Positions 4,540 to 51,429 of a DNA stretch of 54,013 bases are shown here, piece by piece. Every line of letters begins with the position of its first letter. Positions within the stretch are counted from its first letter, which is position 1. The notes below the pieces were generated by a model, which saw only the letters and a program-made list of their open reading frames with translations, made no database searches and had not been told where the DNA came from. A program made the position numbers and the translations under genes. This stretch comes from a virus (lineage: Duplodnaviria > Heunggongvirae > Uroviricota > Caudoviricetes). Where the stretch lies: the IMG/VR virus record IMGVR_UViG_2778261162_000003, one strand, 5' to 3'.

Positions 4540-4770
4540 ATGAACCCAGCTATCAAAACAGCGATCAATATCGTTGGTTCACAAAAGAAACTGGGCGCTG
4601 CTTGCGAAGTTTCACAGCAGGCCGTCTATAAGTGGCTTCACAACAAAGCAAAGGTATCCCCTGAACATGTCGGCAGCATTGTTACGGCTACTGGTGGAGT
4701 AGTGAAGGCATACCAGATTCGCCCGGATCTTCCGAAGTTGTTTCCACACACCGAAAAGAACGCAGCTTAA
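4540..4770 (+). CDS. cro: Cro-like HTH regulator
   Basis: 76 aa, divergent from cI across an operator region; HTH QKKLGAACEVSQQAVYKW. Confidence 0.7.
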   Translation: MNPAIKTAINIVGSQKKLGAACEVSQQAVYKWLHNKAKVSPEHVGSIVTATGGVVKAYQIRPDLPKLFPHTEKNAA

Positions 4771-4839
4771 ATTTCCATTTCACGCTCTTTAACAATAAGC
4801 AATCAACTTAACAGTCAATTCAAACTAAAGGAGTCAATT

Positions 4840-5379: not shown

Positions 5380-5465
5380 CAGGTTCAGAAATGGCGAAAG
5401 CCGGTCTGCTGGAACAGAACCGACTTTCAGGTGCAAATCGTAACACACTCATTGCGGGAGGAATT

Positions 5466-8048: not shown

Positions 8049-9575
8049 ATGAAAAAAGCCATAGCATATATGCGATTTTCATCACCAGGTCAGATGTCTG
8101 GCGACTCATTAAACCGACAGAGAAGACTTATTGCTGAATGGTTAAAGGTAAATAGTGATTATTATCTTGATACCATAACATATGAAGATTTAGGATTAAG
8201 TGCATTCAAAGGAAAGCATGCACAATCAGGAGCTTTTTCGGAATTTTTAGATGCTATAGAGCATGGTTATATATTGCCAGGAACTACATTGTTAGTTGAA
8301 AGTCTGGACAGACTTTCAAGAGAAAAAGTCGGTGAAGCGATTGAGCGTCTGAAATTGATTTTGAATCACGGTATTGATGTTATAACTCTTTGCGATAATA
8401 CAGTCTATAATATTGACTCTTTGAATGATCCATATTCATTAATAAAAGCCATACTTATAGCACAAAGGGCAAATGAAGAAAGCGAGATAAAGTCAAGTCG
8501 GGTTAAATTATCATGGAAGAAAAAACGGCAGGATGCACTGGAGTCAGGCACGATTATGACGGCGTCTTGTCCGAGATGGCTCTCCTTAGATGACAAAAGA
8601 ACGGCTTTTGTTCCAGACCCCGACAGGGTGAAAACTATTGAGCTAATTTTTAAACTCAGGATGGAAAGGCGCTCATTGAATGCAATAGCCAAGTATTTAA
8701 ATGATCATGCTGTAAAGAATTTCTCAGGAAAAGAAAGTGCATGGGGACCTTCTGTAATTGAAAAATTATTAGCGAATAAAGCTCTGATAGGTATATGCGT
8801 ACCTTCATATCGTGCAAGAGGTAAAGGAATAAGTGAAATCGCTGGCTATTATCCCAGAGTCATATCAGATGATTTGTTTTACGCTGTGCAGGAAATTCGG
8901 TTGGCACCTTTTGGTATTAGCAATAGTAGCAAAAACCCTATGTTGATAAATCTACTTCGAACAGTTATGAAGTGCGAGGCTTGTGGTAATACCATGATTG
9001 TTCATGCGGTATCTGGAAGTTTGCATGGCTATTATGTTTGTCCGATGAGAAGACTGCATCGATGTGACAGGCCATCAATAAAGAGAGATTTGGTTGATTA
9101 TAATATCATTAATGAGTTGCTTTTTAATTGTAGTAAAATCCAACCAGTTGAAAACAAGAAAGATGCTAATGAAACTTTAGAGTTGAAAATTATTGAGCTC
9201 CAGATGAAAATTAATAATTTAATTGCTGCATTATCTGTTGCGCCTGAAGTTACCGCTATAGCAGAAAAAATCAGAGTATTAGATAAGGAATTACGAAGGG
9301 CTTCTGTATCATTAAAAACTTTGAAGAGTAAAGCGGTGAGCTCACTTGGTGATTTTCATGCTATTGACTTAACCAGTAAAAATGGGCGAGAGCTATGTCG
9401 TACACTTGCCTATAAAACATTCGAAAAAATCATAATCAATACAGATAATAAAACCTGTGATATCTATTTTATGAATGGCATTGTTTTTAAACACTATCCT
9501 TTAATGAAAACAATATCCGCCCAGCAGGCGATAAGTACTCTCAAATATATGGTTGATGGTGAGGTTTATTTTTGA
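8049..9575 (+). CDS. ybcK: Large serine recombinase (YbcK-like)
   Basis: 508 aa; N-terminal resolvase-like catalytic domain (AYMRFSSPGQ, active-site Ser); Cys-rich recombinase zinc-ribbon; AT-rich codon usage. Confidence 0.85.
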   Translation: MKKAIAYMRFSSPGQMSGDSLNRQRRLIAEWLKVNSDYYLDTITYEDLGLSAFKGKHAQSGAFSEFLDAIEHGYILPGTTLLVESLDRLSREKVGEAIERLKLILNHGIDVITLCDNTVYNIDSLNDPYSLIKAILIAQRANEESEIKSSRVKLSWKKKRQDALESGTIMTASCPRWLSLDDKRTAFVPDPDRVKTIELIFKLRMERRSLNAIAKYLNDHAVKNFSGKESAWGPSVIEKLLANKALIGICVPSYRARGKGISEIAGYYPRVISDDLFYAVQEIRLAPFGISNSSKNPMLINLLRTVMKCEACGNTMIVHAVSGSLHGYYVCPMRRLHRCDRPSIKRDLVDYNIINELLFNCSKIQPVENKKDANETLELKIIELQMKINNLIAALSVAPEVTAIAEKIRVLDKELRRASVSLKTLKSKAVSSLGDFHAIDLTSKNGRELCRTLAYKTFEKIIINTDNKTCDIYFMNGIVFKHYPLMKTISAQQAISTLKYMVDGEVYF

Positions 9576-13397: not shown

Positions 13398-14495
13398 TTA
13401 GAACTGGTAAACCAGACCTACAGCAACGATGTCATCAGTGCTTACACCGAGTGCTTTAGTGAAGTCATTTTTGTCAAGCAGGTTGATTTTGTAATCAACG
13501 AAAGTAGACATATTTTTGTTGAAGTAATAGGTTGCACCTACATCAACATATTTGACTAAGTCCTGATCGCCCCATACTCCAAGATCTTTACCTTTAGATT
13601 GCAGGTAAGCAACGGACGGACGCAGACCGAAATCGAACTGATATTGTGCAACAGCTTCGAAGTTTTGGGCTTTATTAGCAACGAAGTGATCAGCAAATAC
13701 AGTCATATTCTGGGTTTCAGAATAGGTAGTGGCCAGGTAAATGTTGTTAGCGTCATATTTCAGACCTGCGGCCCAAACTTCTGCATTTTTACCGGAAGCA
13801 AATACTTCAGGAAGAACTTTCCCTGCATTAACTTGAGTGTCGGTACGATCAGATTTCGCATAAGTTGCACCGATACCGAATCCTTCGTATTCATAGGTAG
13901 CAGAGAAACCGAAGCCATCACCGTTACCTTCAGTGTAGTTATCGAAATCGCTACGATCGTTTTTGCCTTGGTACTGAGCAGCAAAGTTCAGACCATCAAC
14001 CAGACCAAAGAAGTCGTTGTTACGATAGGTTGCAACACCAGTGGTGCGACCAGTCATGAACACATCTGTTTGGGTCCAGGTATCGCCACCGAATTCTGGC
14101 AGAACGTCAGTCCACGCACCGATGTCGTATGCTACACCGTAGTTACGGCCGTAATCGATTGAGCCGTAGTCACCGAATTTCAGGCCTGCAAATGCAAGAC
14201 GGGTTTTGTCTTTGGAGGAACCTTGAGATTCAGCGCGGTTGCCTTTGAATTCATATTCCCACTGACCGAAACCAGTCAGTTGATCGTTGATTTGGGTTTC
14301 ACCTTTGAAGCCAAGACGGGCATAAGTAGTATCACCATCATCTGCATCATTAGAGGAGAAGTAGTGCTTGGCATTAACTTTCCCGTACAGATCCAGCTTG
14401 TTACTGTCTTTATTATAAATTTCAGCTGCCTGAGCAGACATCGCCATCAGTACTGATGCAGCTACAGCAGAAATTGCCACTGTTAATTTTTTCAT
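13398..14495 (-). CDS. nmpC: OmpC/OmpF-family general porin NmpC, apparently intact
   Basis: 365 aa with signal peptide [23 protein letters not shown] and C-terminal ...VGLVYQF; antisense to the late operon between Q and the lysis genes, as for the lc gene of phage PA-2. Confidence 0.9.
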
Positions 14496-27461: not shown

Positions 27462-27877
27462 GTTTTGCCCTGAAACTGGCGCGAGAGATGGGGCGACCCG
27501 ACTGGCGTGCCATGCTTGCCGGGATGTCATCCACGGAGTATGCCGACTGGCACCGCTTTTACAGTACCCATTATTTTCATGATGTTCTGCTGGATATGCA
27601 CTTTTCCGGGCTGACGTACACCGTGCTCAGCCTGTTTTTCAGCGATCCGGATATGCATCCGCTGGATTTCAGTCTGCTGAACCGGCGTGAGGCTGACGAA
27701 GAGCCTGAAGATGATGTGCTGATGCAGAAAGCGGCAGGGCTTGCCGGAGGCGTCCGCTTTGGCCCGGACGGGAATGAAGTTATCCCCGCTTCCCCGGATG
27801 TGGCGGACATGACGGAGGATGACGTAATGCTGATGACAGTATCAGAAGGGATCGCAGGAGGAGTCCGGTATGGCTGA
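27443..27877 (+). CDS. T: T portion of the G-T tail assembly chaperone (made only as G-T fusion by -1 frameshift)
   Basis: ORF in the -1 frame relative to G, starting at the slippery site and ending before H; matches lambda gpT. Confidence 0.85.
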   Translation: MFDGELSFALKLAREMGRPDWRAMLAGMSSTEYADWHRFYSTHYFHDVLLDMHFSGLTYTVLSLFFSDPDMHPLDFSLLNRREADEEPEDDVLMQKAAGLAGGVRFGPDGNEVIPASPDVADMTEDDVMLMTVSEGIAGGVRYG

Positions 27878-30449
27878 ACCGGTAGGCGATCTGGTCGTTG
27901 ATTTAAGTCTGGATGCGGCCAGATTTGACGAGCAGATGGCCAGAGTCAGGCGTCATTTTTCCGGTACGGAAACTGATGCGAAAAAAACAGCGGCAGTCGT
28001 TGAACAGTCGCTGAGCCGACAGGCGCTGGCTGCACAGAAAGCGGGGATTTCCGTCGGGCAGTATAAAGCCGCCATGCGTATGCTGCCTGCACAGTTCACC
28101 GACGTGGCCACGCAGCTTGCAGGCGGGCAAAGCCCGTGGCTGATCCTGCTGCAACAGGGGGGTCAGGTTAAGGACTCCTTCGGCGGGATGATCCCCATGT
28201 TCAGGGGGCTTGCCGGTGCGATCACCCTGCCGATGGTGGGGGCCACCTCGCTGGCGGTGGCGACCGGTGCGCTGGCGTATGCCTGGTATCAGGGCAACTC
28301 AACCCTGTCCGATTTCAACAAAACGCTGGTCCTTTCCGGCAATCAGGCGGGACTGACGGCAGATCGTATGCTGGTCCTGTCCAGAGCCGGGCAGGCGGCA
28401 GGGCTGACGTTTAACCAGACCAGCGAGTCACTGACGGCGCTGGTGAATGCCGGTGTGCGTGGTGGTGAGCAGTTTGAGGCGATCAGCCAGAGTGTGGCGC
28501 GTTTCTCCTCTGCATCCGGCGTGGAGGTGGACAAGGTCGCTGAAGCCTTCGGGAAGCTGACCACAGACCCGACGTCGGGACTGACAGCGATGGCACGTCA
28601 GTTCCATAACGTGACGGCGGAGCAGATTGCGTATGTTGCTCAGTTGCAGCGTTCCGGAGATGAAGCCGGGGCATTGCAGGCGGCGAACGAGGCCGCAACG
28701 AAAGGGTTTGATGACCAGACCCGCCGCCTGAAAGAGAACATGGGCACGCTGGAGACCTGGGCAGACAGGACAGCACGGGCATTCAAATCCATGTGGGATT
28801 CGGTGCTGGATATTGGTCGCCCGGACACTGCCCAGGGAATGCTGGAGAAAGCAGAAAAGGCTTTTGATGAGGCGGACAAAAAATGGCAGTGGTATCAGAG
28901 CCGGAGCCACCGGCGCGGTAAAACCTCAGCATTTCTTGCCAATCTCCGGGGAGCATGGGAGGACAGAGCGAATGCGCAACTTGGGCTTTCAGCCGCCACG
29001 TTGCAGGCCGATCTTGAAAAGGCCAGAGAGATGGCAGCAAAGGACTGGGCCGAGTCTGAGGCATCACGGCTGAAATATACCGAAGAGGCGCAGAAGGCTT
29101 ACGAACGGCTGCAGACGCCGCTGGAGAAATATACCGCCCGTCAGGAAGAACTGAACAAGGCACTGAAAGACGGGAAAATCCTGCAGGCGGATTACAACAC
29201 GCTGATGGCGGCGGCGAAAAAGGATTATGAAGCGACGCTGAAAAAGCCGAAACAGTCCGGCGTGAAGGTGTCTGCGGGCGATCGTCAGGAAGACAGTGCT
29301 CATGCTGCCCTGCTGACGCTTCAGGCTGAACTCCGGACGCTGGAGAAGCATGCCGGAGCAAATGAGAAAATCAGCCAGCAGCGCCGGGATTTGTGGAAGG
29401 CGGAGAGCCAGTTCGCGGTACTGGAGGAGGCGGCGCAACGTCGCAAGCTGTCTGCACAGGAGAAATCCCTGCTGGCGCATAAAGATGAGACGCTGGAGTA
29501 CAAACGCCAGCTGGCTGCACTTGGCGACAAGGTTACGTATCAGGAGCGCCTGAACGCGCTGGCGCAGCAGGCGGATAAATTCGCACAGCAGCAACGGGCA
29601 AAACGGGCCGCCATTGATGCGAAAAGCCGGGGGCTGACTGACCGGCAGGCAGAACGGGAAGCCACGGAACAGCGCCTGAAGGAACAGTATGGCGATAATC
29701 CGCTGGCGCTGAATAACGTCATGTCAGAGCAGAAAAAGACCTGGGCGGCTGAAGACCAGCTTCGCGGGAGCTGGATGGCAGGCCTGAAGTCCGGCTGGAG
29801 TGAGTGGGAAGAGAGCGCCACGGACAGTATGTCGCAGGTAAAAAGTGCAGCCACGCAGACCTTTGATGGTATTGCACAGAATATGGCGGCGATGCTGACC
29901 GGCAGTGAGCAGAACTGGCGCAGCTTCACCCGTTCCGTGCTGTCCATGATGACAGAAATTCTGCTTAAGCAGGCAATGGTGGGGATTGTCGGGAGTATCG
30001 GTAGCGCCATTGGCGGGGCTGTTGGTGGCGGCGCATCCGCATCAGGCGGTACAGCCATTCAGGCCGCTGCGGCGAAATTCCATTTTGCAACCGGAGGATT
30101 TACGGGAACCGGCGGCAAATATGAGCCAGCGGGGATTGTTCACCGTGGTGAATTTGTCTTCACGAAGGAGGCAACCAGCCGAATTGGTGTCGGCAACCTG
30201 TACCGCCTGATGCGGGGCTATGCGGAAGGTGGTTATGTGGGCGGTGCCGGAAGTCCGGCGCAGATGCGGCGGGCTGAAGGCATTAATTTTAATCAGAACA
30301 ATCACGTGGTGATTCAGAACGACGGTACGAATGGTCTGCCAGGTCCACAGATGATGAAGGCAGTGTATGACATGGCCCGCAAGGGTGCCCGTGATGAAAT
30401 TCAGGCACAGATGCGCGATGGTGGTCTGTTCTCCGGAGGTGGACGATGA
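27870..30449 (+). CDS. H: Tail tape measure protein H
   Basis: 859 aa; N-terminus and most of the length match lambda gpH; C-terminal region slightly divergent from the recalled lambda sequence. Confidence 0.93.
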   Translation: MAEPVGDLVVDLSLDAARFDEQMARVRRHFSGTETDAKKTAAVVEQSLSRQALAAQKAGISVGQYKAAMRMLPAQFTDVATQLAGGQSPWLILLQQGGQVKDSFGGMIPMFRGLAGAITLPMVGATSLAVATGALAYAWYQGNSTLSDFNKTLVLSGNQAGLTADRMLVLSRAGQAAGLTFNQTSESLTALVNAGVRGGEQFEAISQSVARFSSASGVEVDKVAEAFGKLTTDPTSGLTAMARQFHNVTAEQIAYVAQLQRSGDEAGALQAANEAATKGFDDQTRRLKENMGTLETWADRTARAFKSMWDSVLDIGRPDTAQGMLEKAEKAFDEADKKWQWYQSRSHRRGKTSAFLANLRGAWEDRANAQLGLSAATLQADLEKAREMAAKDWAESEASRLKYTEEAQKAYERLQTPLEKYTARQEELNKALKDGKILQADYNTLMAAAKKDYEATLKKPKQSGVKVSAGDRQEDSAHAALLTLQAELRTLEKHAGANEKISQQRRDLWKAESQFAVLEEAAQRRKLSAQEKSLLAHKDETLEYKRQLAALGDKVTYQERLNALAQQADKFAQQQRAKRAAIDAKSRGLTDRQAEREATEQRLKEQYGDNPLALNNVMSEQKKTWAAEDQLRGSWMAGLKSGWSEWEESATDSMSQVKSAATQTFDGIAQNMAAMLTGSEQNWRSFTRSVLSMMTEILLKQAMVGIVGSIGSAIGGAVGGGASASGGTAIQAAAAKFHFATGGFTGTGGKYEPAGIVHRGEFVFTKEATSRIGVGNLYRLMRGYAEGGYVGGAGSPAQMRRAEGINFNQNNHVVIQNDGTNGLPGPQMMKAVYDMARKGARDEIQAQMRDGGLFSGGGR

Positions 30450-30775
30450 AGACCTTCCGCTGGAAAGTGAAACCCGGTATGGATGTGGCTTCGGCCCCTT
30501 CCGTCAGGAAAGTGCGCTTTGGTGATGGCTATTCCCAGCGAGCGCCTGCCGGGCTGAATGCCGACCTGAAAACGTACAGCGTGACGCTTTCTGTTCCCCG
30601 TTGGGAGGCCACGGCGCTGGAGTCGTTTCTGGCTGAGCACGGGGGCTGGAAAGCCTTTCTGTGGACGCCGCCTTATGAGTGGCGGCAGATAAAGGTGACC
30701 TGCGCAAAATGGTCGTCGCGGGTCAGTATGCTGCGTGTTGAGTTCAGCGCAGAGTTTGAACAGGTGGTGAACTGA
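30446..30775 (+). CDS. M: Tail tip protein M
   Basis: 109 aa, matches lambda gpM. Confidence 0.93.
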   Translation: MKTFRWKVKPGMDVASAPSVRKVRFGDGYSQRAPAGLNADLKTYSVTLSVPRWEATALESFLAEHGGWKAFLWTPPYEWRQIKVTCAKWSSRVSMLRVEFSAEFEQVVN

Positions 30776-31473
30776 TGCAGGATATCCGGCAGGAAACACT
30801 GAATGAATGCACCCGTGCGGAGCAGTCGGCCAGCGTGGTGCTCTGGGAAATCGACCTGACAGAGGTCGGTGGAGAACGTTATTTTTTCTGTAATGAGCAG
30901 AACGAAAAAGGTGAGCCGGTCACCTGGCAGGGGCGACAGTATCAGCCGTATCCCATTCAGGGGAGTGGTTTTGAACTGAATGGCAAAGGCACCAGTACGC
31001 GCCCCACACTGACGGTTTCTAACCTGTACGGTATGGTCACCGGGATGGCGGAAGATCTGCAGAGTCTGGTCGGTGGAACGGTGGTCCGGCGTAAGGTTTA
31101 CGCCCGTTTTCTGGATGCGGTGAACTTCGTCAACGGAAACAGTGGCGCCGATCCGGAGCAGGAGGTGATCAGCCGCTGGCGCATTGAGCAGTGCAGCGAA
31201 CTGAGCGCGGTGAGTGCCTCTTTTGTACTGTCCACGCCGACGGAAACGGATGGCGCTGTTTTTCCGGGACGTATCATGCTGGCCAACACCTGCACCTGGA
31301 CCTATCGCGGTGACGAGTGCGGTTATAGCGGTCCGGCTGTCGCGGATGAATATGACCAGCCAACGTCCGATATCACGAAGGATAAATGCAGCAAATGCCT
31401 GAGCGGTTGTAAGTTCCGCAATAACGTCGGCAACTTTGGCGGCTTCCTTTCCATTAACAAACTTTCGCAGTAA
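30775..31473 (+). CDS. L: Tail tip protein L
   Basis: 232 aa, matches lambda gpL; Cys cluster near the C-terminus. Confidence 0.93.
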   Translation: MQDIRQETLNECTRAEQSASVVLWEIDLTEVGGERYFFCNEQNEKGEPVTWQGRQYQPYPIQGSGFELNGKGTSTRPTLTVSNLYGMVTGMAEDLQSLVGGTVVRRKVYARFLDAVNFVNGNSGADPEQEVISRWRIEQCSELSAVSASFVLSTPTETDGAVFPGRIMLANTCTWTYRGDECGYSGPAVADEYDQPTSDITKDKCSKCLSGCKFRNNVGNFGGFLSINKLSQ

Positions 31474-31478
31474 ATCCC

Positions 31479-32222
31479 ATGACACAGACAGAATCAGCGA
31501 TTCTGGCGCACGCCCGGCGATGTGCGCCAGCGGAGTCGTGCGGCTTCGTGGTAAGCACGCCGGAGGGGGAAAGATATTTCCCCTGCGTGAATATCTCCGG
31601 TGAGCCGGAGGCGTATTTCCGTATGTCGCCGGAAGACTGGCTGCAGGCAGAAATGCAGGGTGAGATTGTGGCGCTGGTCCACAGCCACCCCGGTGGTCTG
31701 CCCTGGCTGAGTGAGGTCGACCGGCGGCTGCAGGTGCAGAGTGATTTGCCGTGGTGGCTGGTCTGCCGGGGGACGATTCATAAGTTCCGCTGTGTGCCGC
31801 ATCTCACCGGGCGGCGCTTTGAGCACGGTGTGACGGACTGTTACACACTGTTCCGGGATGCTTATCATCTGGCGGGGATTGAGATGCCGGACTTTCATCG
31901 TGAGGATGACTGGTGGCGTAACGGCCAGAATCTCTATCTGGATAATCTGGAGGCGACGGGGCTGTATCAGGTGCCGTTGTCAGCGGCACAGCCGGGCGAT
32001 GTGCTGCTGTGCTGTTTTGGTTCATCGGTGCCGAATCACGCCGCAATTTACTGCGGCGACGGCGAGCTGCTGCACCATATTCCTGAACAACTGAGCAAAC
32101 GAGAGAGGTACACCGACAAATGGCAGCGACGCACACACTCCCTCTGGCGTCACCGGGCATGGCGCGCATCTGCCTTTACGGGGATTTACAACGATTTGGT
32201 CGCCGCATCGACCTTCGTGTGA
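31479..32222 (+). CDS. K: Tail tip assembly protein K (JAMM/MPN plus NlpC/P60-like domains)
   Basis: 247-aa ORF; JAMM-like motif HSHPGGLPWLSEVD in the N-terminal part; overlaps I as in lambda. Confidence 0.85.
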   Translation: MTQTESAILAHARRCAPAESCGFVVSTPEGERYFPCVNISGEPEAYFRMSPEDWLQAEMQGEIVALVHSHPGGLPWLSEVDRRLQVQSDLPWWLVCRGTIHKFRCVPHLTGRRFEHGVTDCYTLFRDAYHLAGIEMPDFHREDDWWRNGQNLYLDNLEATGLYQVPLSAAQPGDVLLCCFGSSVPNHAAIYCGDGELLHHIPEQLSKRERYTDKWQRRTHSLWRHRAWRASAFTGIYNDLVAASTFV

Positions 32223-32791
32223 AAACGGGGGCTGAAGCCATCCGGGCACTGGCCACACAGCTCCCGGCGTTTCGTCAGAAACTGAGCGACGGCTGGTATC
32301 AGGTACGGATTGCCGGGCGGGACGTCAGCACGTCCGGGTTAACGGCGCAGTTACATGAGACTCTGCCTGATGGCGCTGTGATTCATATTGTTCCCAGAGT
32401 CGCCGGGGCCAAGTCAGGTGGCGTATTCCAGATTGTCCTGGGGGCTGCCGCCATTGCCGGATCATTCTTTACCGCCGGAGCCACCCTTGCAGCATGGGGG
32501 GCAGCCATTGGGGCCGGTGGTATGACCGGCATCCTGTTTTCTCTCGGTGCCAGTATGGTGCTCGGTGGTGTGGCGCAGATGCTGGCACCGAAAGCCAGAA
32601 CTCCCCGTACACAGACAACGGATAACGGTAAGCAGAACACCTATTTCTCCTCACTGGATAACATGGTTGCCCAGGGCAATGTTCTGCCTGTTCTGTACGG
32701 GGAAATGCGCGTGGGGTCACGCGTGGTTTCTCAGGAGATCAGCACGGCAGACGAAGGGGACGGTGGTCAGGTTGTGGTGATTGGTCGCTGA
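32120..32791 (+). CDS. I: Tail tip assembly protein I
   Basis: 223 aa, matches lambda gpI (MAATHTLPLASPGMARICLYGDLQRFGRRIDLRV...). Confidence 0.93.
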   Translation: MAATHTLPLASPGMARICLYGDLQRFGRRIDLRVKTGAEAIRALATQLPAFRQKLSDGWYQVRIAGRDVSTSGLTAQLHETLPDGAVIHIVPRVAGAKSGGVFQIVLGAAAIAGSFFTAGATLAAWGAAIGAGGMTGILFSLGASMVLGGVAQMLAPKARTPRTQTTDNGKQNTYFSSLDNMVAQGNVLPVLYGEMRVGSRVVSQEISTADEGDGGQVVVIGR

Positions 32792-32851: not shown

Positions 32852-35800
32852 ATGGGTAAAGGAAGCAGTAAGGGGCATACCCCGCGCGAAGCGAAGGACA
32901 ACCTGAAGTCCACGCAGTTGCTGAGTGTGATTGATGCCATCAGTGAAGGGCCGATTGAAGGTCCGGTGGATGGATTAAAAAGCGTGCTGCTGAACAGTAC
33001 GTCGGTGCTGGACAGTGATGGGAATACCAACATCGCCGGTGTCACGGTGGTGTTCCGGGCTGGTGAGCAGGAGCAGACTCCGCCGGAGGGATTTGAATCC
33101 TCCGGCTCCGAGACGGTGTTGGGTACGGAAGTGAAATACGACACGCCGATCACCCGCGCCATCACGTCGGCAAACATCGACCGACTGCGCTTTACCTTCG
33201 GTGTGCAGGCACTGGTGGAAACCACCTCAAAGGGGGACCGGAATCCGTCGGAAGTTCGCCTGCTGGTTCAGATACAGCGTAATGGTGGCTGGGTGACGGA
33301 AAAAGACATCACCATTAAGGGCAAAACCACCTCGCAGTATCTGGCCTCGGTGGTGGTGGATAACCTGCCGCCGCGCCCGTTTAATATCCGGATGCGCAGA
33401 ATGACGCCGGACAGCACCACAGACCAGCTGCAGAACAAAACGCTCTGGTCGTCATACACCGAAATCATCGATGTGAAACAGTGCTACCCGAACACGGCAC
33501 TGGTCGGCGTGCAGGTGGACTCGGAACAGTTCGGCAGCCAGCAGGTGAGCCGTAATTATCATCTTCGCGGGCGCATTCTGCAGGTGCCGTCGAACTATAA
33601 CCCGCAGACGCGGCAATACAGCGGTATCTGGGACGGAACGTTTAAGCCAGCATACAGCAACAACATGGCCTGGTGTCTGTGGGATATGCTGACCCATCCG
33701 CGCTACGGCATGGGGAAGCGTCTCGGTGCGGCGGATGTGGACAAATGGGCGCTGTATGTCATCGGCCAGAATTGCGACCAGTCGGTGCCGGATGGCTTTG
33801 GTGGCACGGAGCCGCGCATCACCTGTAATGCCTACCTGACCACACAGCGCAAGGCGTGGGATGTTCTCAGTGATTTCTGCTCGGCGATGCGCTGTATGCC
33901 GGTATGGAACGGGCAGACGCTGACGTTCGTGCAGGACCGACCGTCGGATAAGGTGTGGACCTATAACCGCAGTAATGTGGTGATGCCGGATGATGGCGCG
34001 CCGTTCCGCTACAGCTTCAGTGCCCTGAAGGACCGTCATAATGCCGTTGAGGTGAACTGGATTGACCCGGATAACGGCTGGGAGACGGCGACAGAGCTTG
34101 TTGAAGATACGCAGGCCATTCTCCGTTACGGTCGTAACGTCACGAAGATGGATGCCTTTGGCTGTACCAGCCGGGGCAGGCACACCGCGCCGGGCTGTGG
34201 CTGATTAAAACGGAACTACTGGAAACGCAGACCGTGGACTTCAGCGTGGGTGCGGAAGGGCTTCGCCATGTGCCGGGCGATGTCATTGAAATCTGCGATG
34301 ATGACTATGCGGGGATCAGCACCGGCGGGCGCGTGCTGGCGGTGAACAGCCAGACCCGGACGCTGACGCTCGACCGTGAAATCACGCTGCCATCCTCCGG
34401 TACCACGCTGATAAGCCTGGTTGACGGAAGTGGCAATCCGGTCAGCGTGGAGGTCCAGTCCGTCACCGACGGCGTGAAGGTAAAAGTGAGCCGTGTTCCT
34501 GACGGCGTTGCCGGATACAGCGTATGGGGGCTGAAGCTGCCGACGCTGCGCCAGCGCCTGTTCCGCTGCGTGAGTATCCGTGAGAACGACGACGGCACGT
34601 ATGCCATCACCGCCGTGCAGCATGTACCGGAAAAAGAAGCTATCGTGGATAACGGGGCGCACTTTGACGGCGACCAGAGCGGCACGGTGAATGGTGTCAC
34701 GCCGCCAGCAGTGCAGCACCTGACTGCCGAAGTCACCGCAGACAGCGGGGAGTATCAGGTACTGGCCCGCTGGGACACGCCGAAGGTGGTGAAGGGCGTG
34801 AGTTTCATGCTTCGCCTGACCGTGGCAGCGGATGACGGCAGTGAGCGGCTGGTCAGCACGGCCCGGACGACAGAAACCACTTACCGCTTCACACAACTGG
34901 CTCTGGGGAACTACAGGCTGACAGTCCGGGCAGTAAATGCGTGGGGGCAGCAGGGCGATCCGGCGTCGGTATCGTTCCGGATTGCCGCACCGGCAGCGCC
35001 GTCGCGGATTGAGCTGACGCCGGGCTATTTTCAGATAACCGCCACGCCGCATCTTGCGGTTTATGATCCGACGGTACAGTTTGAGTTCTGGTTCTCGGAA
35101 AAACGGATTGCGGATATCAGGCAGGTTGAAACCACAGCACGCTATCTTGGCACGGCGCTGTACTGGATAGCCGCCAGTATCAATATCAGGCCGGGCCATA
35201 ATTATTATTTTTACGTTCGCAGTGTGAACACCGTTGGCAAATCGGCATTCGTGGAGGCTGTTGGTCAGCCGAGTGATGACGCATCCGGCTATCTGGATTT
35301 TTTCAAAGGCGAGATAGGGAAAACCCATCTGGCTCAGGAGCTGTGGACGCAGATTGATAACGGTCAGCTTGCGCCTGACCTGGCTGAAATCAGGACGTCC
35401 ATAACGGATGTCAGCAATGAAATCACACAGACCGTCAATAAGAAACTGGAAGACCAGAGTGCAGCGATCCAGCAGATACAGAAGGTTCAGGTTGATACAA
35501 ATAATAATCTGAACAGCATGTGGGCTGTGAAGCTGCAGCAGATGCAGGACGGACGCCTTTATATCGCGGGTATCGGTGCCGGTATTGAGAACACCCCCGA
35601 CGGCATGCAGAGTCAGGTGCTGCTGGCGGCAGACAGGATTGCGATGATTAATCCTGCAAATGGCAACACAAAACCGATGTTTGTTGGTCAGGGTGATCAG
35701 ATATTCATGAATGAAGTGTTCCTGAAATATCTGACGGCTCCCACCATTACCAGCGGCGGTAATCCTCCTGCATTTTCCCTGACACCGGACGGAAAGCTGA

Positions 35801-36330
35801 CCGCTAAAAATGCAGATATCAGTGGCAGTGTGAATGCGAACTCCGGGACGCTCAACAACGTTACGATAAATGAGAACTGTCAGATTAAAGGGAAACTGTC
35901 AGCCAACCAGATTGAAGGCGATATTGTCAAAACAGTGGGTAAGGCTTTCCCGCGGGACTCCCGGGCACCGGAGCGGTGGCCATCAGGGACCATTACCGTC
36001 AGGATTTATGACGATCAGCCTTTTGACAGGCAAATTGTTATTCCGGCGGTGGCATTCTGCGGCGCTAAACATGAGCGGGAGAATAACGATATTTATTCGT
36101 CATGCCGCCTGATAGTGAAGAAAAATGGTGCTGAAATTTATAACCGTACCGCGCTGGATAATACGCTGATTTACAGTGGTGTTATTGATATGCCAGCTGG
36201 TCACGGCCACATGACGCTGGAGTTTTCGGTGTCAGCATGGCTGGTAAATGACTGGTATCCCACAGCAAGTATCAGCGATTTGCTGGTTGTGGTGATGAAG
36301 AAAGCCACCGCAGGCATCAGTATCAGCTGA
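32852..36330 (+). pseudogene. J: Tail tip host-specificity protein J, interrupted by a -1 frameshift in a G-run (or sequencing error); C-terminal receptor-binding region appears divergent from lambda J
   Basis: ORF 32852-34204 matches lambda J residues 1 to about 445; frame changes at GGGG (34173-34176) where recalled lambda has GGGGG; downstream frame continues as [24 protein letters not shown]... matching lambda J to 36330. Confidence 0.85.
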
Positions 36331-36397: not shown

Positions 36398-36997
36398 ATG
36401 CGTAAAGTTTGTGCAGCCATTTTGTCCGCAGCCATCTGTCTGGCCGTATCCGGTGCGCCTGCATGGGCGTCTGAGCAGCAGGCCACACTGAGCGCAGGGT
36501 ATCTTCATGCCCGTACGAACGCTCCCGGCAGCGATAATCTGAACGGGATTAACGTGAAATACCGTTATGAGTTTACGGACACGCTGGGGCTGATTACGTC
36601 ATTCAGTTATGCCAACGCTGAAGATGAGCAAAAAACGCATTACAGCGATACCCGCTGGCATGAAGATTCCGTGCGTAACCGCTGGTTCAGCGTGATGGCG
36701 GGGCCGTCTGTGCGCGTGAATGAATGGTTCAGCGCGTATGCGATGGCGGGTGTGGCTTACAGCCGTGTGTCGACTTTCTCCGGGGATTATCTGCAGGTGA
36801 CCGACAATACGGGGAAAACGCACGATGTGCTGATCGGAAGTGATGACGGTCGCCACAGCAACACGTCTCTGGCGTGGGGGGCTGGCGTGCAGTTTAACCC
36901 GACCGAATCCGTGGCCGTTGATGTCGCTTATGAAGGTTCCGGCAGTGGCGACTGGCGCACTGACGGTTTCATCGTGGGTGTCGGTTATAAATTCTGA
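36398..36997 (+). CDS. lom: Outer membrane protein Lom (Ail/Lom family)
   Basis: 199 aa with signal peptide; C-terminal ...[10 protein letters not shown] beta-barrel signature; matches lambda Lom. Confidence 0.9.
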
Positions 36998-37050: not shown

Positions 37051-37061
37051 GTGGGGTGAAT

Positions 37062-39890
37062 ATGGCAGTAAAGATTTCAGGTGTACTGAAAGACGGCACA
37101 GGAAAACCGGTACAGAACTGCACAATCCAGCTGAAAGCAAAACGTAACAGTACCACGGTGGTGGTGAACACGCTGGCCTCAGAAAATCCGGATGAAGCCG
37201 GGCGTTACAGCATGGACGTTGAGTACGGTCAGTACAGCGTTATTCTGTTGGTGGAAGGATTCCCGCCGTCACATGCCGGGACCATCACCGTGTATGAAGA
37301 TTCCCGACCCGGTACGCTGAATGATTTTCTCGGTGCCATGACGGAGGATGATGCCCGTCCTGAGGCACTGCGCCGTTTTGAACTGATGGTGGAAGAGGTG
37401 GCGCGTAACGCGTCCGCGGTGGCACAGAACACGGCAGCCGCGAAGAAGTCAGCCAGCGATGCCAGCACATCAGCCCGTGAGGCGGCAACCCATGCGACTG
37501 ATGCTGCAGGCTCAGCACGCGCAGCCAGCACGTCAGCCGGACAGGCTGCTTCGTCGGCTCAGTCAGCGTCTTCCAGCGCAGGAACGGCATCAACAAAGGC
37601 CACTGAAGCATTAAAAAGTGCTGCCGCTGCAGAGTCCTCAAAAAGCGCGGCGGCTACCAGTGCCGGTGCGGCGAAAACGTCAGAAACGAATGCGGCAGCG
37701 TCACAACAATCAGCAGCCACTTCTGCATCCGCCGCGACCACGAAGGCGTCAGAAGCAGCCACCTCAGCCCGGGATGCGGCGGCCTCAAAAGAGGCAGCGA
37801 AATCATCAGAAACGAACGCATCATCAAGCGCCAGTAGTGCCGCTTCCTCGGCAACGGCGGCAGGCAATTCCGCGAAGGCGGCAAAGACGTCTGAGACAAA
37901 CGCCAGGTCTTCTGAAACGGCAGCGGGACAGAGCGCCTCGGCTGCGGCAGGCTCAAAAACAGCGGCTGCGTCGTCTGCCAGTGCCGCGTCAACAAGTGCC
38001 GGGCAGGCCTCAGCCAGTGCCACCGCCGCCGGAAAATCGGCAGAAAGCGCCGCATCATCCGCTTCAACAGCCACAACGAAGGCTGGCGAAGCCACTGAAC
38101 AGGCCAGCGCAGCAGCGAGGTCTGCTTCCGCAGCGAAGACATCCGAAACGAACGCGAAAGCGTCGGAAACCAGCGCAGAATCCTCAAAAACGGCTGCCGC
38201 ATCGTCCGCCAGTTCGGCGGCGTCATCGGCATCATCTGCGTCTGCTTCAAAAGATGAGGCGACCAGACAGGCGTCAGCAGCGAGGGGCAGCGCCACGACG
38301 GCATCCACGAAGGCGACAGAGGCTGCTGGCAGTGCGGCAGCGGCAGCACAGAGCAAAAGTACGGCGGAATCCGCGGCAACGCGCGCCGAGACAGCAGCAA
38401 AACGGGCAGAGGATATTGCATCCGCCGTGGCGCTTGAGGATGCGAGCACGACGAAAAAGGGGATAGTACAGCTCAGCAGTGCGACTAACAGCACTTCCGA
38501 GTCACAGGCGGCAACGCCAAAAGCCGTTAAGGCCGCGTATGACCTGGCTAACGGGAAATACACCGCACAGGACGCTACGACAGCACAAAAAGGAATTGTC
38601 CAGCTCAGTAGTGCAACCAACAGCACATCTGAAACGCTTGCTGCGACACCGAAAGCAGTGAAAGCAGCTAATGACAATGCGAATGGTCGGGTACCTTCTG
38701 CCCGTAAGGTGAATGGTAAGGCGCTTTCAGCGGATATAACACTGACGCCGAAAGATATTGGTACGCTTAACTCAACAACAATGTCATTCAGCGGTGGTGC
38801 TGGTTGGTTCAAATTAGCAACGGTAACCATGCCACAGGCGAGTTCTGTTGTTTCAATTACGTTGATTGGTGGCGCTGGATTTAACGTGGGGTCACCTCAA
38901 CAGGCAGGTATATCTGAACTTGTTTTACGTGCAGGTAATGGTAATCCGAAGGGGATTACTGGTGCTTTATGGCAGCGCACATCGACAGGGTTTACAAATT
39001 TTGCCTGGGTCAATACATCTGGTGATACTTACGATATTTACGTTGCAATCGGAAATTATGCGACTGGTGTAAATATTCAATGGGATTATACCAGTAATGC
39101 CAGCGTGACGATTCATACGTCACCAGCATATTCTGCTAATAAGCCGGAAGGGTTAACGGACGGTACAGTTTATTCACTCTATACGCCATCAGAGCAGTTT
39201 TATCCGCCTGGCGCACCAATCCCGTGGCCATCAGATACCGTTCCGTCTGGCTATGCCCTGATGCAGGGGCAGACTTTTGACAAATCTGCATACCCGAAAC
39301 TTGCAGCCGCTTATCCGTCAGGCGTGATCCCTGATATGCGTGGCTGGACGATTAAGGGCAAACCTGCCAGTGGTCGGGCCGTATTGTCTCAGGAACAGGA
39401 CGGCATTAAATCGCATACCCACAGCGCCAGCGCATCCAGTACGGATTTGGGGACGAAAACCACATCGTCGTTTGATTACGGCACTAAATCCACGAATAAC
39501 ACTGGTGCGCATACCCATAGTTTAAGTGGCAGCACGAATGCAGCTGGTAATCACAGCCATAGAGATGGCCGTCGATTTAACCCCAGTGTTTTTAAAGATA
39601 CTTATCAATATGGTTATACAAGCTCAGGTCAAAATACCTGGGGTGTACAAGGCTCAGTAGGTATGTCTACGGGGTGGTTAGCGAATACCAGTACAGATGG
39701 TAATCATAGCCATTCACTGTCCGGCACAGCAGCATCTGCAGGTGCACACGCGCATACTGTCGGTATTGGTGCTCATACGCACTCCGTTGCGATTGGTTCA
39801 CATGGACACACCATCACCGTTAACGCTGCTGGTAACGCGGAAAACACCGTCAAAAACATCGCATTTAACTATATTGTGAGGCTTGCATAA
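37062..39890 (+). CDS. stf: Side tail fiber protein Stf (full length)
   Basis: N-terminal 110 aa match lambda Stf ([27 protein letters not shown]...); long Ala/Ser/Thr-rich repeat region; C-terminal domain with repeated His-x-His motifs ([42 protein letters not shown]). Confidence 0.9.
37400..38470 (+). repeat. Low-complexity Ala/Ser/Thr-rich coding repeat inside stf
   Basis: Iterated SAxSAxxAAT/KTSETNA units at protein level; GC-rich repetitive DNA producing long spurious ORFs on other frames and the opposite strand. Confidence 0.8.
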
Positions 39891-40465
39891 TGGCATTCAG
39901 AATGAGTGAACAACCACGGACCATAAAAATTTATAATCTGCTGGCCGGAACTAATGAATTTATTGGTGAAGGTGACGCATATATTCCGCCTCATACAGGT
40001 CTGCCAGCAAACAGTACCGATATTGCACCACCAGATATTCCTGCTGGCTTTGTGGCTGTTTTCAACAGTGATAAGGCATCGTGGCATCTTGTTGAAGACC
40101 ATCGGGGTAAAACGGTTTATGACGTAGCGTCAGGGGACGCGTTATTTATTTCTGAACTCGGTCCGTTACCGGAAAATGTTACCTGGTTATCGCCGGAAGG
40201 GGAGTTTCAGAAGTGGAACGGCACAGCCTGGGTGAAAGATGCAGAAGCAGAAAAACTGTTCCGGATCCGAGAGGCGGAAGAAACAAAAAACAGCCTGATG
40301 CAGGTAGCCAGTGAGCATATTGCGCCACTTCAGGATGCTGTAGATCTGGAAATCGCAACGGAGGAAGAAACCTCATTGCTGGAAGCCTGGAAAAAGTATC
40401 GGGTGTTGCTGAACCGTGTTGATACGTCAACTGCACAGGATATTGAATGGCCAGCACTGCCGTAG
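39890..40465 (+). CDS. tfa: Tail fiber assembly protein Tfa
   Basis: 191 aa; start overlaps the stf stop (TAATG); matches lambda Tfa family. Confidence 0.9.
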
Positions 40466-40562: not shown

Positions 40563-41153
40563 TTATATGTCAGGTGTCTGAAGTTTTGCTTTGGCTCTTA
40601 AAATGGTTTGCCGCGAGGTTTTGAATTCCCGGGCAATGGCACTTATACTTACACCTGACTTAATTCGTTCGAATACCACCTGTTTCTGTTCTTCATTTAA
40701 CACAGGTGGTCGACCAAAACGTTTCCCTGCGCCGCGGGCTCTTACTATCCCGGAATGAGTGCGTTCAAGTAAAAGGTCTCGTTCAAATTCAGCGACTGCT
40801 GAAATTACGTGCATCATCATTTTTCCTGTTGGACTGGTCAGGTCAATGCCCCCCAATGCTAAGCAATGCACTCTGATACCTGTTTCGGTCAGTTGTTCCA
40901 CTGTTTTCCTGATATCCATTGCATTACAACCAAGGCGATCCAGTTTTGTCACAATCAATTGATCACCACATTTCAGGCGAGCAAGCAACCGGTTAAAACC
41001 AGGACGCTCACTGGTTGCTGCTGAGCCGCTAATGTGTTCTTCGATTATTTGCTGAGGTTTGATTTTAAAACCTGCACTTTCGATTTCCCGGCGTTGATTT
41101 TCGATGGTCTGATCCAGCGTTGATATCCGACAGTAAGCAAAAATTCGAGACAT
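40563..41153 (-). CDS. pin: Pin/Gin/Hin/Cin-family serine DNA invertase
   Basis: 196 aa; N-terminal [15 protein letters not shown] with active-site Ser; C-terminal HTH; immediately follows tfa in convergent orientation. Confidence 0.9.
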
Positions 41154-48436: not shown

Positions 48437-51429
48437 TTACCAGTGCACTCCAATGGTGAGAAACGCGTTGTTGCGCTCTCCGTTACGTTGATTAATCGCC
48501 TTAAAGGTATGTTGATACTCGACGCCGAGACTGACTTTGTGCGGCCAGGCGTCGTAGTGCGTCTCGCCGGTCCAGATATTCCAGCGGACCCCGACTCCGC
48601 CAAGCTGCGCGCCCTGAGTGCCTTTATCACGATAGCCGTTGTCCTGAACGTGAGCGTAAGGCTCAATAGTCTGTCCGTTAGCTACCTTCTGATGCCAGCT
48701 GACGCGATAATCTGCCGTCCACGCCTGAATATCCTGGCGGATATATTGCGCCGCATCGAGGTACAGGTTTTGGGCAAACCAGCCTGAACCGTTCGGGTGC
48801 CATTCGTCGCTGTATTTGCCGCCATTAAAGAATGAGGCGCTGGCGCGCAGCATGGTATCGGATGCGCCATTTTGCCCGTTCAGCGGCAACTGCTGTTCGA
48901 CGGCGAGGAAAAAGATCTGATCGCGCAGCGGCTTCCAGCGCAGACCGGTGCCGGACATCGGATTTTTCACCGGCATCATCACCCCGTTTTCTCCGGTATC
49001 GGCAAAGACGCGGCTATAAACTGAGAGCAGGTCGCCTTCCAGCAGCATATTGCGTCCGATGCGGTACTCGGCTTCCAGTTGCCCGTAGCTACGATAGCTT
49101 TTCCCTGGCGCTGCGCCGCCGACATTATTGTTAGCGGTGCTCATTGCCCCGGAACGCAAGCCGATAGAAGAATCGAAACTGAACGTCCAGCGGCGACCGA
49201 CCTCCTCATGCAAACGGCGGAAATTGAAGCGTTGCTGATTTTGCTCTGGGGTCAGTGGGGTTATCAGCGCCTGATTATCAATGTCATCAATCACCAGCCG
49301 GGCGTAGTGCTGCGTCGCAGGCATGTCATCCAGACGCTGGTTCACGTAGGCCAGTTGTCGGATCAGTGCCGGATCGTCCGGAAGCCCTTTATGCGCCTGT
49401 TCGAGCATTTCCCGCGACTGTGCGATATCACCGCTATCCCACAAGGCGTAACCAAGCGCTGCCTGGATGTTGCTATTATTCGGTTCCAGTTCCAGCGCGG
49501 CGCGCAAATCACTCACCGCCGCCGGGACATTATGACGTTGGCGATAAATTGTCGCCCGCGCAACGTAAGCGTTGGCAGAAGGCGCAATATTGATTGAGCG
49601 CGTGAGATCGCTCAGTGCGAGTTCCGGCTGACCAGGAATGTAACGTTGCGCATGCAGCCACCAGTAGAGGGCATTGTTTCCCAGTCCACGTTGTTCTGCC
49701 TGTTGTAGCCAGCGATCGCGAGCTGCACCATTTCCTGCCGCCTGGGCGGTATTGGCAGCAGCAAGCAGATCCTCATTGCTCATGTCGTGAAGACTGATTT
49801 TCTGCCAGGCCGCCAGTGCGGTGGCGTAGTCCTCAACCTGATACGCCTGATAGGCTACCGCACGATGTTGCCAGGCGTTCGGTTGTCGTTGTTCGGCCTG
49901 AAGCCATGCATACAGCGCCACACCGGGTAGCGTGTCCCGATAACACTTTGCCAGACGGTTCCAGGCGGCAGCATCGTAGGAAGGCGACATATCGCCCAGC
50001 AAGCGAACTATTGCCGGGCAATTATCTGCAATACCCGGCAACTGACTTTGCCACTGACGTTGCTCCGCCAGCGGTAAGGGTTTCGATAAAATCGCCACCT
50101 TCGCCGGCGTTGCCAGGTAAGGATGACTTTCCAGCAGAGACGCCAGTCGCGCCATTAAAGTCTGGCTGACACGCGCATCGCCCTGGAAAGGATAGCGTTG
50201 CAGCAATAAATCGGCAGCTTCGCGTGACTGCTCGTTCTGCATCAGTTGCCAGGTCAGTTGATCCAGGCGGGTAAGATTTGCCGGTTCTTGCTGATACAGC
50301 AATCGTGCCAGACGCAGAGATTCAGCCTTGTTACGGGCGCCACGCTGACAGCATAACGCTCCTCAAGCATTTCATTGGCGGGGAGGGTGGCGAGCAGTTT
50401 TTGCGCTGCGTCGTACTGACCTTCTTTTAACAGCACCGGTAGCGTCGCGCCAACAACATACTGGCGGTTATCGGCAAACTGCACCGTATAATTCGCCAAT
50501 GCCTGAACGGGGTTGGCGCTGTATTTAGATAACAGATAGAGCCAACTTTTCTCTTGTGCGTCCGTGGTAAACAGCGGCTTATTTTCATTGAGATAATGCT
50601 GGAGGCGTGCTTTTTCGCCACGATAAGCCAGCGCGGTCGCGTAAGTAATATATGACTGAGGATCGGTGAAGATCCCCTGTGATTGCAGTGCCAGGATCCG
50701 ATCGTCCAGCTGCCCGGCAAGAAGCACGTCAAACCACTGACGGCGTTCTGCCGCGCTTAATGTGTTCTGCTGGCGTGCTTCATTGTATAGCGTATCTGCC
50801 TGGGACCATTGTTTCAGGTAGATTGCCCGTTGCAGCAGATCGGTTCGCAGCGTTTTTCCTTCTGGCGATGCAGCAAACGTCGCATCGTTCAGTTGCGCTC
50901 TGGCGACAGGTAATTGTGCCAGCCGCAGGGCATTCTGCCCGACTTCACTGCGACAACGCAGGGTCGGCGCAGCGTCGCACGCTTTTTGCTGGGCAAGCAG
51001 TTCTTCAACAGTCGTAACGCTTTTCACTTCAACCGGAATAGCCGCCAGACTGCGCTCAAGTCGGGCATCTCCTGGGTGACGTTTCAGTTGATCCTCAAGC
51101 AACAGCCGCGCCCGGTCATCATGACCAAAATGGCGATAGGCTTCCGCAAGGTATAAAGTAAGCGGAATATTATCCGGCACCTGCTGGTGTATATATTCAA
51201 ATTCGCGGATGGCGGTTGCTTCGTCGTTATTTTTCTGTGCCTTCAGCGACTTATCGAGACGGGGATAAATAACAAAATGGCGATAATCGCTCAGCCCCAG
51301 CTCTTCTGCGCTGGTGCCGATATTGTCTGCGAGTGCGCTGGTACTCAATAAAGACGTCAGCAGTAAACCAGACCATCCGATGACGCGATTAAGGTTATTC
51401 TCCTTCATTTTCGGACTCCAGTTGCGCAA
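48437..51429 (-). pseudogene. nfrA: Bacteriophage N4 adsorption outer membrane protein NfrA, split into two overlapping ORFs (frameshift or sequencing error)
   Basis: N-terminal ORF 50254-51429 (391 aa, signal peptide, TPR-like) and C-terminal ORF 48437-50302 (621 aa, ends ...AFLTIGVHW) in different frames, overlapping about 50 nt; together equal NfrA length (about 990 aa). Confidence 0.8.

Follow-up and report, generated by a model that had tools for sequence, protein, structure and literature searches.

The J gene of the prophage analyzed here is very probably a natural lambdoid mosaic that carries a receptor-binding domain (RBD) of the VT1-Sakai/1A2 class, likely of the OmpC type, and that has most likely become a pseudogene through a 1-nt deletion. 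The window, i.e., the whole stretch of DNA under analysis (54,013 nt), holds a prophage at the DLP12 position of the E. coli chromosome, adjoining ompT, envY, ybcH, nfrA and nfrB; a tRNA scan detected no tRNA genes in the window. J follows H-M-L-K-I and precedes lom and stf, an order identical to that of annotated relatives, and the names of the tail-cluster genes were taken from near-identical annotated prophages.

27870-30449, H, in the lambdoid tail cluster, with M, L and K next
32120-32791, I, directly before J in the H-M-L-K-I order
32852-36330 (+ strand), J, the lambdoid tail-tip attachment protein and central tail fiber
36398-36997 (+ strand), lom, with a match to Pfam Ail_Lom
37056-39890, stf, in the lambdoid tail cluster, 3′ of lom
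39890-40465, tfa, in the lambdoid tail cluster, after stf

The DNA of lom was 53-83% identical to lambda and 71-99% identical to PhiR55_1, VT1-Sakai and Stx2a_1447; since lom is not lambda-like, the non-lambda stretch extends beyond the 3′ end of J. Elsewhere in the same prophage lies an intact PA-2-type lc porin gene (13398-14495), a 99.5% match to record J02580. We take this gene to be the one that links phage PA-2, Lc and OmpC, a connection that stands outside our main argument.

The open reading frame listing directly revealed J as two frames, 32852-34204 (450 aa) and 34234-36330 (698 aa), in place of a single intact frame of about 1130-1165 codons. The sequence-only reading had overlooked this interruption. 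The two parts meet at a run of four G residues, which is a run of five G in lambda, PhiR55_1 and E. coli NCCP 15734 in the window alignment.

32852-34204 (+ strand), 5′ open frame of J, the hub-domain part, with 441 native codons and 9 out-of-frame codons before a premature stop
34173-34176 (+ strand), frameshift site, GGGG as opposed to GGGGG in intact relatives, a 1-nt deletion
34177-36330 (+ strand), 3′ part of J after the frameshift, covering residues 443-1159 of repaired J and the stop; its first GTG, at 34234, is the start of the 698-aa frame

All protein comparisons below use the repaired J of 1159 aa, in which the missing G is restored. We infer from the deletion that J has lost its function and, in this strain, is most likely a pseudogene, because translation would stop after 450 codons. 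The prophage is therefore probably tail-defective; it would have no functional tail tip of its own unless J came from another resident prophage or was restored by recombinational repair. An alternative, which we regard as unlikely, is that an error in sequencing or assembly produced the frameshift, in which case the real genome would have an intact, functional J. The missing base falls within a G homopolymer, a classic site of error, every listed intact relative has five G, and all listed E. coli genome matches to the 3479-nt J query span 3480 nt. A second 1-nt deletion in the window, the loss of a single T between GGG and C that splits nfrA, could likewise hint at an error-prone assembly, but it lies outside any homopolymer of the deleted base. 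Across 7353 nt, the Logan assembly of SRR3989769 agrees with the window at every position (100% identity), and it contains the four-G allele with its 450-aa product as well; the reads behind this assembly are perhaps those behind the window too, which leaves room for a systematic error at the G homopolymer. Decay of a prophage J has a precedent as well, in that the annotation of the VT1-Sakai prophage describes its J as likewise split by mutation.

By descent, J is nonetheless a member of the lambda-like tail-tip family, even as a likely pseudogene. Pfam searches with the repaired protein returned six gpJ-specific families along with a weak match to fn3; these are placed as in lambda J and all exceed the gathering cut-off. 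The six families run in the order FNIII-A_GpJ, Phage-tail_3, Ig_J (aa 610-714), Ig_J_second (716-818), Phage_Tail_Tip (872-1000) and Ig_GpJ_C (1029-1159); FNIII-A_GpJ and Phage-tail_3 fall within the 5′ part of J. When the 352-aa C-terminus was compared with solved gpJ chains, the best match was 9wca ("A8 gpJ 713", an OmpC-retargeted chimera; E 5e-126), followed by 8xcj (1.4e-104) and 8iyk (3.8e-103), and matches of this kind across the whole C-terminus settle the fold.

Alignment with lambda J (NC_001416, 15505-18903) bore out the earlier impression of a C-terminus unlike that of lambda: residues 1-810 were 96.8% identical, whereas residues 811-1159 were 50.9% identical, clearly not above 95%. 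At the DNA level, identity stayed at 91-100% as far as nt ~35250, fell to 76% in the bin 35252-35326 and was 36-65% thereafter, apart from a lambda-like island at 35702-35851 (87-99%). The start of the divergent stretch had been placed at 35280, about 25 nt at most from where divergence actually begins (aa ~806-819, nt ~35266-35305); its length, given as roughly 300 residues, is actually about 340, and the divergence is uneven, with 41% identity and a net 28-aa insertion over residues 831-960, 97.8% over the lambda-like residues 961-1005 and 44% over residues 1006-1159. The divergent part comprises five segments:

35305-35463 (+ strand), putative alpha-helical shaft of the long type, aa 819-871, assigned by its position in the alignment
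35464-35730 (+ strand), upper central straight fiber of the phage 21 type, aa 872-960, from alignments and Pfam
35731-35865 (+ strand), conserved lower fiber segment, aa 961-1005, with 44 of 45 residues equal to lambda
35866-35934 (+ strand), fiber-to-RBD linker of the A8-chimera type, aa 1006-1028
35935-36327 (+ strand), C-terminal Ig-like RBD of the VT1-Sakai/1A2 class, aa 1029-1159, a predicted OmpC binder, matching Pfam PF12421 Ig_GpJ_C at E 2.7e-37

The shaft is named after the corresponding lambda domain (809-861; PMC11101478). Together, shaft and upper fiber were about 41% identical to lambda, 28 aa longer than their lambda counterpart, and 99% identical to phage 21, PhiR55_1 and VT1-Sakai; the upper fiber retains the Phe equivalent to lambda F924 (PMC13043305). 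The lower fiber includes window residue 992, which corresponds to lambda 964, the fusion point of published chimeras. In the linker, residues Q1011, I1012, K1013 and I1025 are as in A8, as opposed to R, V, L and L in 1A2 and VT1-Sakai. The RBD scored 128 bits against Ig_GpJ_C, compared with 247 bits for lambda.

The mosaic structure could be read directly from DNA identities along the gene. The stretch 35250-35700 was 89-99% identical to phage 21, PhiR55_1 and VT1-Sakai and 36-65% identical to lambda; 35777-35851 was 99% lambda-like and 77-87% identical to phage 21, PhiR55_1 and VT1-Sakai; and 35927-36330 was 85-100% identical to PhiR55_1, VT1-Sakai and Stx2a_1447 (87-96% for the RBD of Stx2a_1447) and 57-71% identical to lambda and phage 21. 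The G+C content drops from 0.588 to 0.47-0.51. Moreover, a syntenic prophage of strain LZSFT34, at the same chromosomal site, has the same J to about nt 35850, followed by a phage-434-type RBD. On these alignments, the C-terminal divergence of J is a recombinational exchange of several modules. The domain swap proposed from the sequence was thus correct as to exchange by recombination, but several modules moved, not one. In this reconstruction, J is a natural recombinant whose hub and FNIII region (aa 1-810) and lower fiber are lambda-like, whose long shaft and upper fiber are of the phage 21 type, and whose Ig-like RBD belongs to the VT1-Sakai/1A2 class.

We consider it barely credible that the divergence instead built up within one lineage, as gradual drift through point mutations or under diversifying selection and without exchange of modules. 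The differences between the window and 1A2 are concentrated in variable segments, and diversifying selection is reported to act on C-terminal residues of J in nature (Maddamsetti 2018), both of which would suit such a history. Against it stand identity changes that are abrupt within 75-nt bins, nearest relatives that differ from segment to segment (phage 21, lambda, A8 and VT1-Sakai), the 28-aa indel and G+C step, and an upstream 3 kb common to syntenic prophages carrying a 434-class RBD. An analysis of dN/dS on the RBD was dropped, as the contrast of 80% DNA identity with 93% protein identity mixes the shaft with the RBD.

Comparison with named relatives places each module of the mosaic. Lambda J (P03749; PDB 8IYK, 8XCG) shares the gene position and Pfam architecture, and presumably the tail-tip and fiber mechanism; it binds LamB, and its RBD is 41% identical to that of the window. 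J of VT1-Sakai (Sp15; E. coli O157:H7, AP000400), whose C-terminus is that of 1A2, has the long shaft as in the window (98%), whereas its N-terminal two-thirds are only 61-88% identical in DNA. In phage 21 (OL657228), the shaft and upper fiber are 99% identical, the 28 extra residues included, and the DNA of J matches at 94.5% identity from the start of the gene for 3,099 nt, which brings the match to about window nt 35950, but the RBD is 65% identical. The A8 chimera (PDB 9wca/9wcb) has the same residues as the window at aa 992-1028, and its RBD is 61% identical. J of phage 434 (OL657227) has an RBD 44% identical to the window, and its class fills the same slot in the LZSFT34 prophage. PhiR55_1, an isolated phage, encodes an intact J (XSB43168.1) with 95.2% DNA identity over the full length and 123 of 127 RBD residues (aa 1033-1159; 97%) in common. 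The closest protein was the intact gpJ of E. coli NCCP 15734 (WP_338465622.1, annotated as "phage attachment tail tip protein J"), from which the repaired J differs at 2 of 1159 residues (G91D, R494C); the prophage that carries that copy occupies the Qin (ydfJ) locus, as opposed to the DLP12 locus of the window prophage. A whole-gene identity of at least 99% was found for 41 records.

The class of the RBD follows directly from these comparisons. The window RBD was identical to VT1-Sakai/1A2 at 123 of 131 residues (94%; 8 differences), and over the 168-aa segment equivalent to the published graft it matched VT1-Sakai J at 155 residues (92%; 13 differences), a high identity to a segment that retargets lambda J when grafted. 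The sequences of 1A2 and A8 came from a machine-read supplement PDF with dropped bases and were compared by frameshift-tolerant alignment; over the 159 cleanly read codons, 1A2 matched VT1-Sakai at 155 and the window at 142. Identities to other RBDs were 97% for PhiR55_1 (aa 1033-1159), 65% for phage 21, 61% for A8, 44% for 434 and 41% for lambda; relative to the LamB-binding RBD of lambda (~1001-1132), the window RBD also has several indels in variable segments, which sets it apart from the lambda type.

Brödel et al. (2024, PMC11338833) made residue 964 of lambda J the fusion point for the C-terminus of 1A2, in a chimera screen that used a lamB-deleted recipient to seek variants with another receptor. 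In their delivery assay, with a lamB/ompC double deletion and plasmid-borne OmpC variants, delivery was efficient for 21 of 23 OmpC variants by A8, 1A2 or both; 1A2 delivered efficiently with the OmpC of EDL933 and not with that of MG1655 (PMC11338833). It thus accepts the majority of the natural OmpC variants assayed, EDL933 among them, and performs poorly with the K-12 form. The OmpC assignment is repeated in a preprint (10.1101/2025.02.28.640725). From homology to this experimentally retargeted chimera, we infer that the receptor of the window allele is most probably OmpC rather than LamB; OmpC use is demonstrated for 1A2 and predicted for the window allele. The suggestion that J recognizes a different outer-membrane receptor thus gains support by homology only, with OmpC the likely candidate. 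Use of OmpC has also been described for the A8 chimera (PMC11338833), phage 434 (PMC12502783) and phi330, an EHEC phage with an RBD that shares 35-40% identity with those of lambda and 434 (PMC12502783). The RBDs of A8 and 434 are classes separate from that of the window that also reach OmpC; phi330 was not used as evidence, as there was no sequence to compare with the window RBD. Our literature search found no receptor assignment for PhiR55_1, PhiR46_1, vB_EcoS-640R1 or 2G7b, with PhiR55.1 appearing only in a defense-system/ManYZ context, and no receptor data for the gpJ of NCCP 15734.

Phage 21 cautions against reading a receptor from divergence alone. Its native receptor is LamB, from which use of OmpC and OmpF can evolve by few J mutations, a single one being enough for OmpC (PMC11336670), and its RBD is 47% identical to that of lambda and 80% identical to that of A8. 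A LamB user with so distant an RBD means that divergence from lambda by itself is no proof of a new receptor, and its closeness to the OmpC user A8 indicates that receptor choice is labile in this fold. The window RBD, 65% identical to that of phage 21, might by the same token still bind LamB as another solution for the same receptor, with host range unchanged. We judge this highly improbable, because the window RBD is far closer (94%) to the 1A2/VT1-Sakai RBD, and 1A2 was recovered with a lamB-deleted recipient and delivers into lamB/ompC-deleted cells supplied with OmpC variants (PMC11338833). Among the substitutions relative to 1A2, R1076K, N1078H and N1079T share one variable segment and D1134N lies in a second; three of the eight in the RBD are thus grouped within residues 1076-1079, where the sequence is hypervariable and prone to indels, and the eight could shift the range of OmpC variants used, or even the porin. 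A more elaborate scenario, which we think decidedly doubtful, extends this to an RBD retuned to another OmpC subset or porin, a frameshifted J that serves as a silent cassette for co-resident lambdoid prophages to acquire through recombination, and an lc porin that replaces the receptor against OmpC-using superinfection. E. coli genomes with any J match have a median of 3 J matches, and the complete E. coli genomes together contain roughly 16,000.

If predicted OmpC binding is accepted, entry would proceed as in lambda, for which cryo-EM has described the tail-tip domains and the opening of the homotrimer on receptor binding (PMC11101478). Given the 97% identity of the hub, J would likewise be expected to assemble into a homotrimer that seals the tail tip until contact with the receptor opens it. 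By analogy with the lambda structures, the trimer would project the central fiber, and the bottom loops of the three RBDs would enter a trimeric outer-membrane porin; porin binding would then spread the RBDs, the helical shaft would refold onto the fiber, and the hub would open to eject the DNA. With J frameshifted, an OmpC-type specificity is probably unexpressed in this genome.

Counted directly, matches to the window RBD class occurred in 3,395 of 5,426 complete E. coli genomes, and matches to the lambda RBD in 98 of the same 5,426, with laboratory lysogens topping that list. The window RBD is thus the commonest natural version in E. coli and the finding is ordinary: with the lambda RBD rare and this class common, being different from lambda is the default and no mark of unusualness. 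Both the mosaic exchange of the J C-terminus and the retargeting from LamB to OmpC by this RBD class are already known from published work, and 1A2-class retargeting has already been applied in engineered delivery vectors. As a discovery, the C-terminal divergence of J therefore carries little weight; predictions of inducibility or host range made from this genome should take the frameshift in J into account.

The lambdoid prophage of the window keeps its tail genes in lambda's order and is bordered on its right by ompT, envY, ybcH, nfrA and nfrB (99.9-100% identity to E. coli strain LZSFT34), which is the DLP12 position in the E. coli chromosome.

Tail genes of the window prophage
27870-30449, H
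30446-30775, M
30775-31473, L
31479-32222, K
32120-32791, I
32852-36330, + strand, J (tail-tip attachment protein, central tail fibre)
36398-36997, + strand, lom
37056-39890, + strand, stf
39890-40465, tfa

We compared J with its lambda counterpart (NC_001416), both as DNA and as a repaired protein in which one missing G was added back (1159 aa versus 1132 aa in lambda). DNA identity was 91-100% up to approximately nt 35250, 76% in the bin 35252-35326 and 36-65% beyond, with a lambda-like island of 87-99% at 35702-35851. Correspondingly, residues 1-810 of the repaired protein were 96.8% identical to lambda J and residues 811-1159 were 50.9% identical; the latter comprised residues 831-960 (41%, with a net insertion of 28 residues), 961-1005 (97.8%) and 1006-1159 (44%). 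The sequence-only reading had described a near-identical upstream portion and a divergent C-terminus at 35280-36330, the 3′ third of J. Since C-terminal identity fell below 95% in this alignment, the divergence stands, and its coordinates had been placed correctly to within about 25 nt. The Pfam architecture was the same as that of lambda J (FNIII-A_GpJ, Phage-tail_3, Ig_J, Ig_J_second, Phage_Tail_Tip at 872-1000 and Ig_GpJ_C at 1029-1159), and the onset of divergence mapped to the shaft of the lambda protein.

To delineate the origin of the divergent part, we compared window J with those of lambda, phage 21, PhiR55_1, the VT1-Sakai prophage, Stx2a_1447, 434 and the LZSFT34 prophage, together with A8 and 1A2, natural gpJ C-termini grafted onto lambda J in published chimeras.

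Nearest types along the divergent part of J
35305-35730 (aa 819-960), shaft and upper fibre: 99% phage 21 / PhiR55_1, 98% VT1-Sakai, 41% lambda; exceeds the lambda segment by 28 aa
35731-35865 (aa 961-1005), lower fibre: 44/45 residues identical to lambda
35866-35934 (aa 1006-1028), linker: A8 type
35935-36327 (aa 1029-1159), receptor-binding domain (RBD): 94% VT1-Sakai; 97% PhiR55_1 (aa 1033-1159)

At DNA level the lower fibre was 99% identical to lambda, compared to 77-87% for the phages that are elsewhere nearest to the window, and RBD identity to other phages was 65% for phage 21, 61% for A8, 44% for 434 and 41% for lambda. Drift as the source of this divergence was rejected on the basis of these patchwork affinities, a step in G+C across the boundary from 0.588 to 0.47-0.51, and the LZSFT34 prophage. 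In the latter, located at the same chromosomal site, J (2853-6350 of its contig) matches the window to approximately nt 35850 (92-100%) and thereafter carries a 434-class RBD, 96% identical to 434 and 42% to the window. These two prophages, syntenic with each other, provide a clean natural case in which an RBD cassette has been exchanged. The divergence of J is thus recombinational module exchange, in support of the domain swap that had been proposed.

In lambda, four bottom loops of the RBD enter LamB, and binding flips the shaft by ~180 degrees and opens the hub (PMC11101478). In the work of Brödel et al. 2024, lambda gpJ was fused at residue 964 to C-termini of natural gpJ proteins, and a recipient lacking lamB served to screen these chimeras for variants using another receptor; in a lamB/ompC double deletion carrying 23 plasmid-borne OmpC variants, A8, 1A2 or both delivered efficiently with 21, and 1A2 was efficient with the EDL933 variant but not with that of MG1655 (PMC11338833). 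The 1A2 sequence, machine-read from the supplement of that study with dropped bases and therefore aligned with frameshift tolerance, had 159 cleanly read codons, of which 155 matched the C-terminal 168 residues of VT1-Sakai J and 142 matched window J. Over the same 168 residues, the window and VT1-Sakai are 92% identical, with 13 substitutions, and the Pfam RBD contains eight of these (I1052V, C1070S, R1076K, N1078H, N1079T, K1090R, D1134N and S1157T). Among solved structures, the window C-terminus matched the A8 chimera best (PDB 9wca, E 5e-126), with lambda J itself behind it. Given the likeness of both the RBD and the grafted segment, we assign the window RBD to the 1A2/VT1-Sakai class, for which OmpC is the predicted receptor. 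A receptor other than that of lambda, as initially suggested, is supported, with OmpC itself assigned purely by homology. Phage 21 uses LamB, and a single J mutation enables its use of OmpC (PMC11336670); its RBD is 47% identical to lambda and 80% to the OmpC-using A8. Few changes can suffice to shift specificity within this fold.

J had also been treated as intact; however, a G-run at 34173-34176 contains four G in the window and five in lambda, PhiR55_1 and E. coli NCCP 15734, and all J matches listed among E. coli genomes span 3480 nt compared to the 3479-nt query. This 1-nt deletion stops translation after 450 codons (32852-34204), leaving the remainder in another frame as a 698-aa ORF. 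It recurs in the Logan assembly made from run SRR3989769, in which a contig matching the window at 100% identity over 7353 nt, 4-G allele included, encodes the identical 450-aa product, so the deletion is reproducible from reads. A less likely alternative is a homopolymer error common to both assemblies. The deletion is probably genuine and J probably dead in this genome, similar to VT1-Sakai J, which is also annotated as mutation-truncated.

Several other features accompany J. nfrA (48437-51429, - strand), whose product is an outer-membrane protein that phage N4 requires for adsorption, has lost one T near 50338 relative to LZSFT34, outside any T homopolymer, which divides the gene into ORFs of 621 aa and 391 aa; the adjoining nfrB, ybcH, envY and ompT carry no indels. 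An intact prophage porin gene (13398-14495, - strand, 365 aa, Pfam Porin_1, E 1e-156) shares 99.5% DNA identity with lc of phage PA-2 (J02580.1) and 98% with nmpC of phage 434, which is disrupted by IS5. OmpC is the receptor of PA-2 and 434, and its level falls when Lc is expressed; the porin cargo and OmpC-class J could therefore form a receptor-replacement or superinfection-exclusion pair. A 508-aa large serine recombinase (8049-9575, + strand; Resolvase, Recombinase and Zn_ribbon_recom domains) lies inside the prophage, 3′ of the replication genes (O and P, 5376-7093). Integrase-like genes are unusual at this position, and it may be the sign of a nested element. Stf (944 aa) contains an Ala/Ser/Thr-rich low-complexity stretch of ~400 aa, which explains the compositional anomaly at 37250-38750 (AT skew 0.2-0.43, G+C 0.58-0.62), and carries HxH repeats rich in His at its C-terminus. 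tfa is followed by an invertase ORF of pin type (40563-41153, - strand), called pinQ or pinR in relatives; a search for long inverted repeats on either side of a fibre segment yielded none that was convincing. In J, F952 (~35704-35706, in 'QIFMNEVF') is the conserved counterpart of lambda F924, the trigger of the prophage abortive-infection nuclease HepS (PMC13043305); an intact copy of window J would therefore be expected to trigger HepS.

The J allele, its RBD class and the receptor used by this class were all already known. E. coli NCCP 15734 has an intact gpJ (WP_338465622.1) that differs from repaired window J by two residues, and 41 records match the whole gene at at least 99% identity. 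Of 5,426 complete E. coli genomes, 3,395 have a match to the RBD segment (35927-36330), with ~3,190 records at at least 90% identity. These classes appear again in the phage collection, where 56 records match the window RBD protein at 90-95%, 89 at 60-80% (the class of phage 21 and A8) and 97 at under 60% (the classes of lambda, mEp460 and 434). The lambda RBD has matches in 98 genomes of the same complete E. coli set, all at least 99% identical; five among the matches listed are a K-12 derivative, a B derivative, C41(DE3), C43(DE3) and BL21-Gold(DE3), all laboratory strains. The outlier is lambda, not the window prophage.
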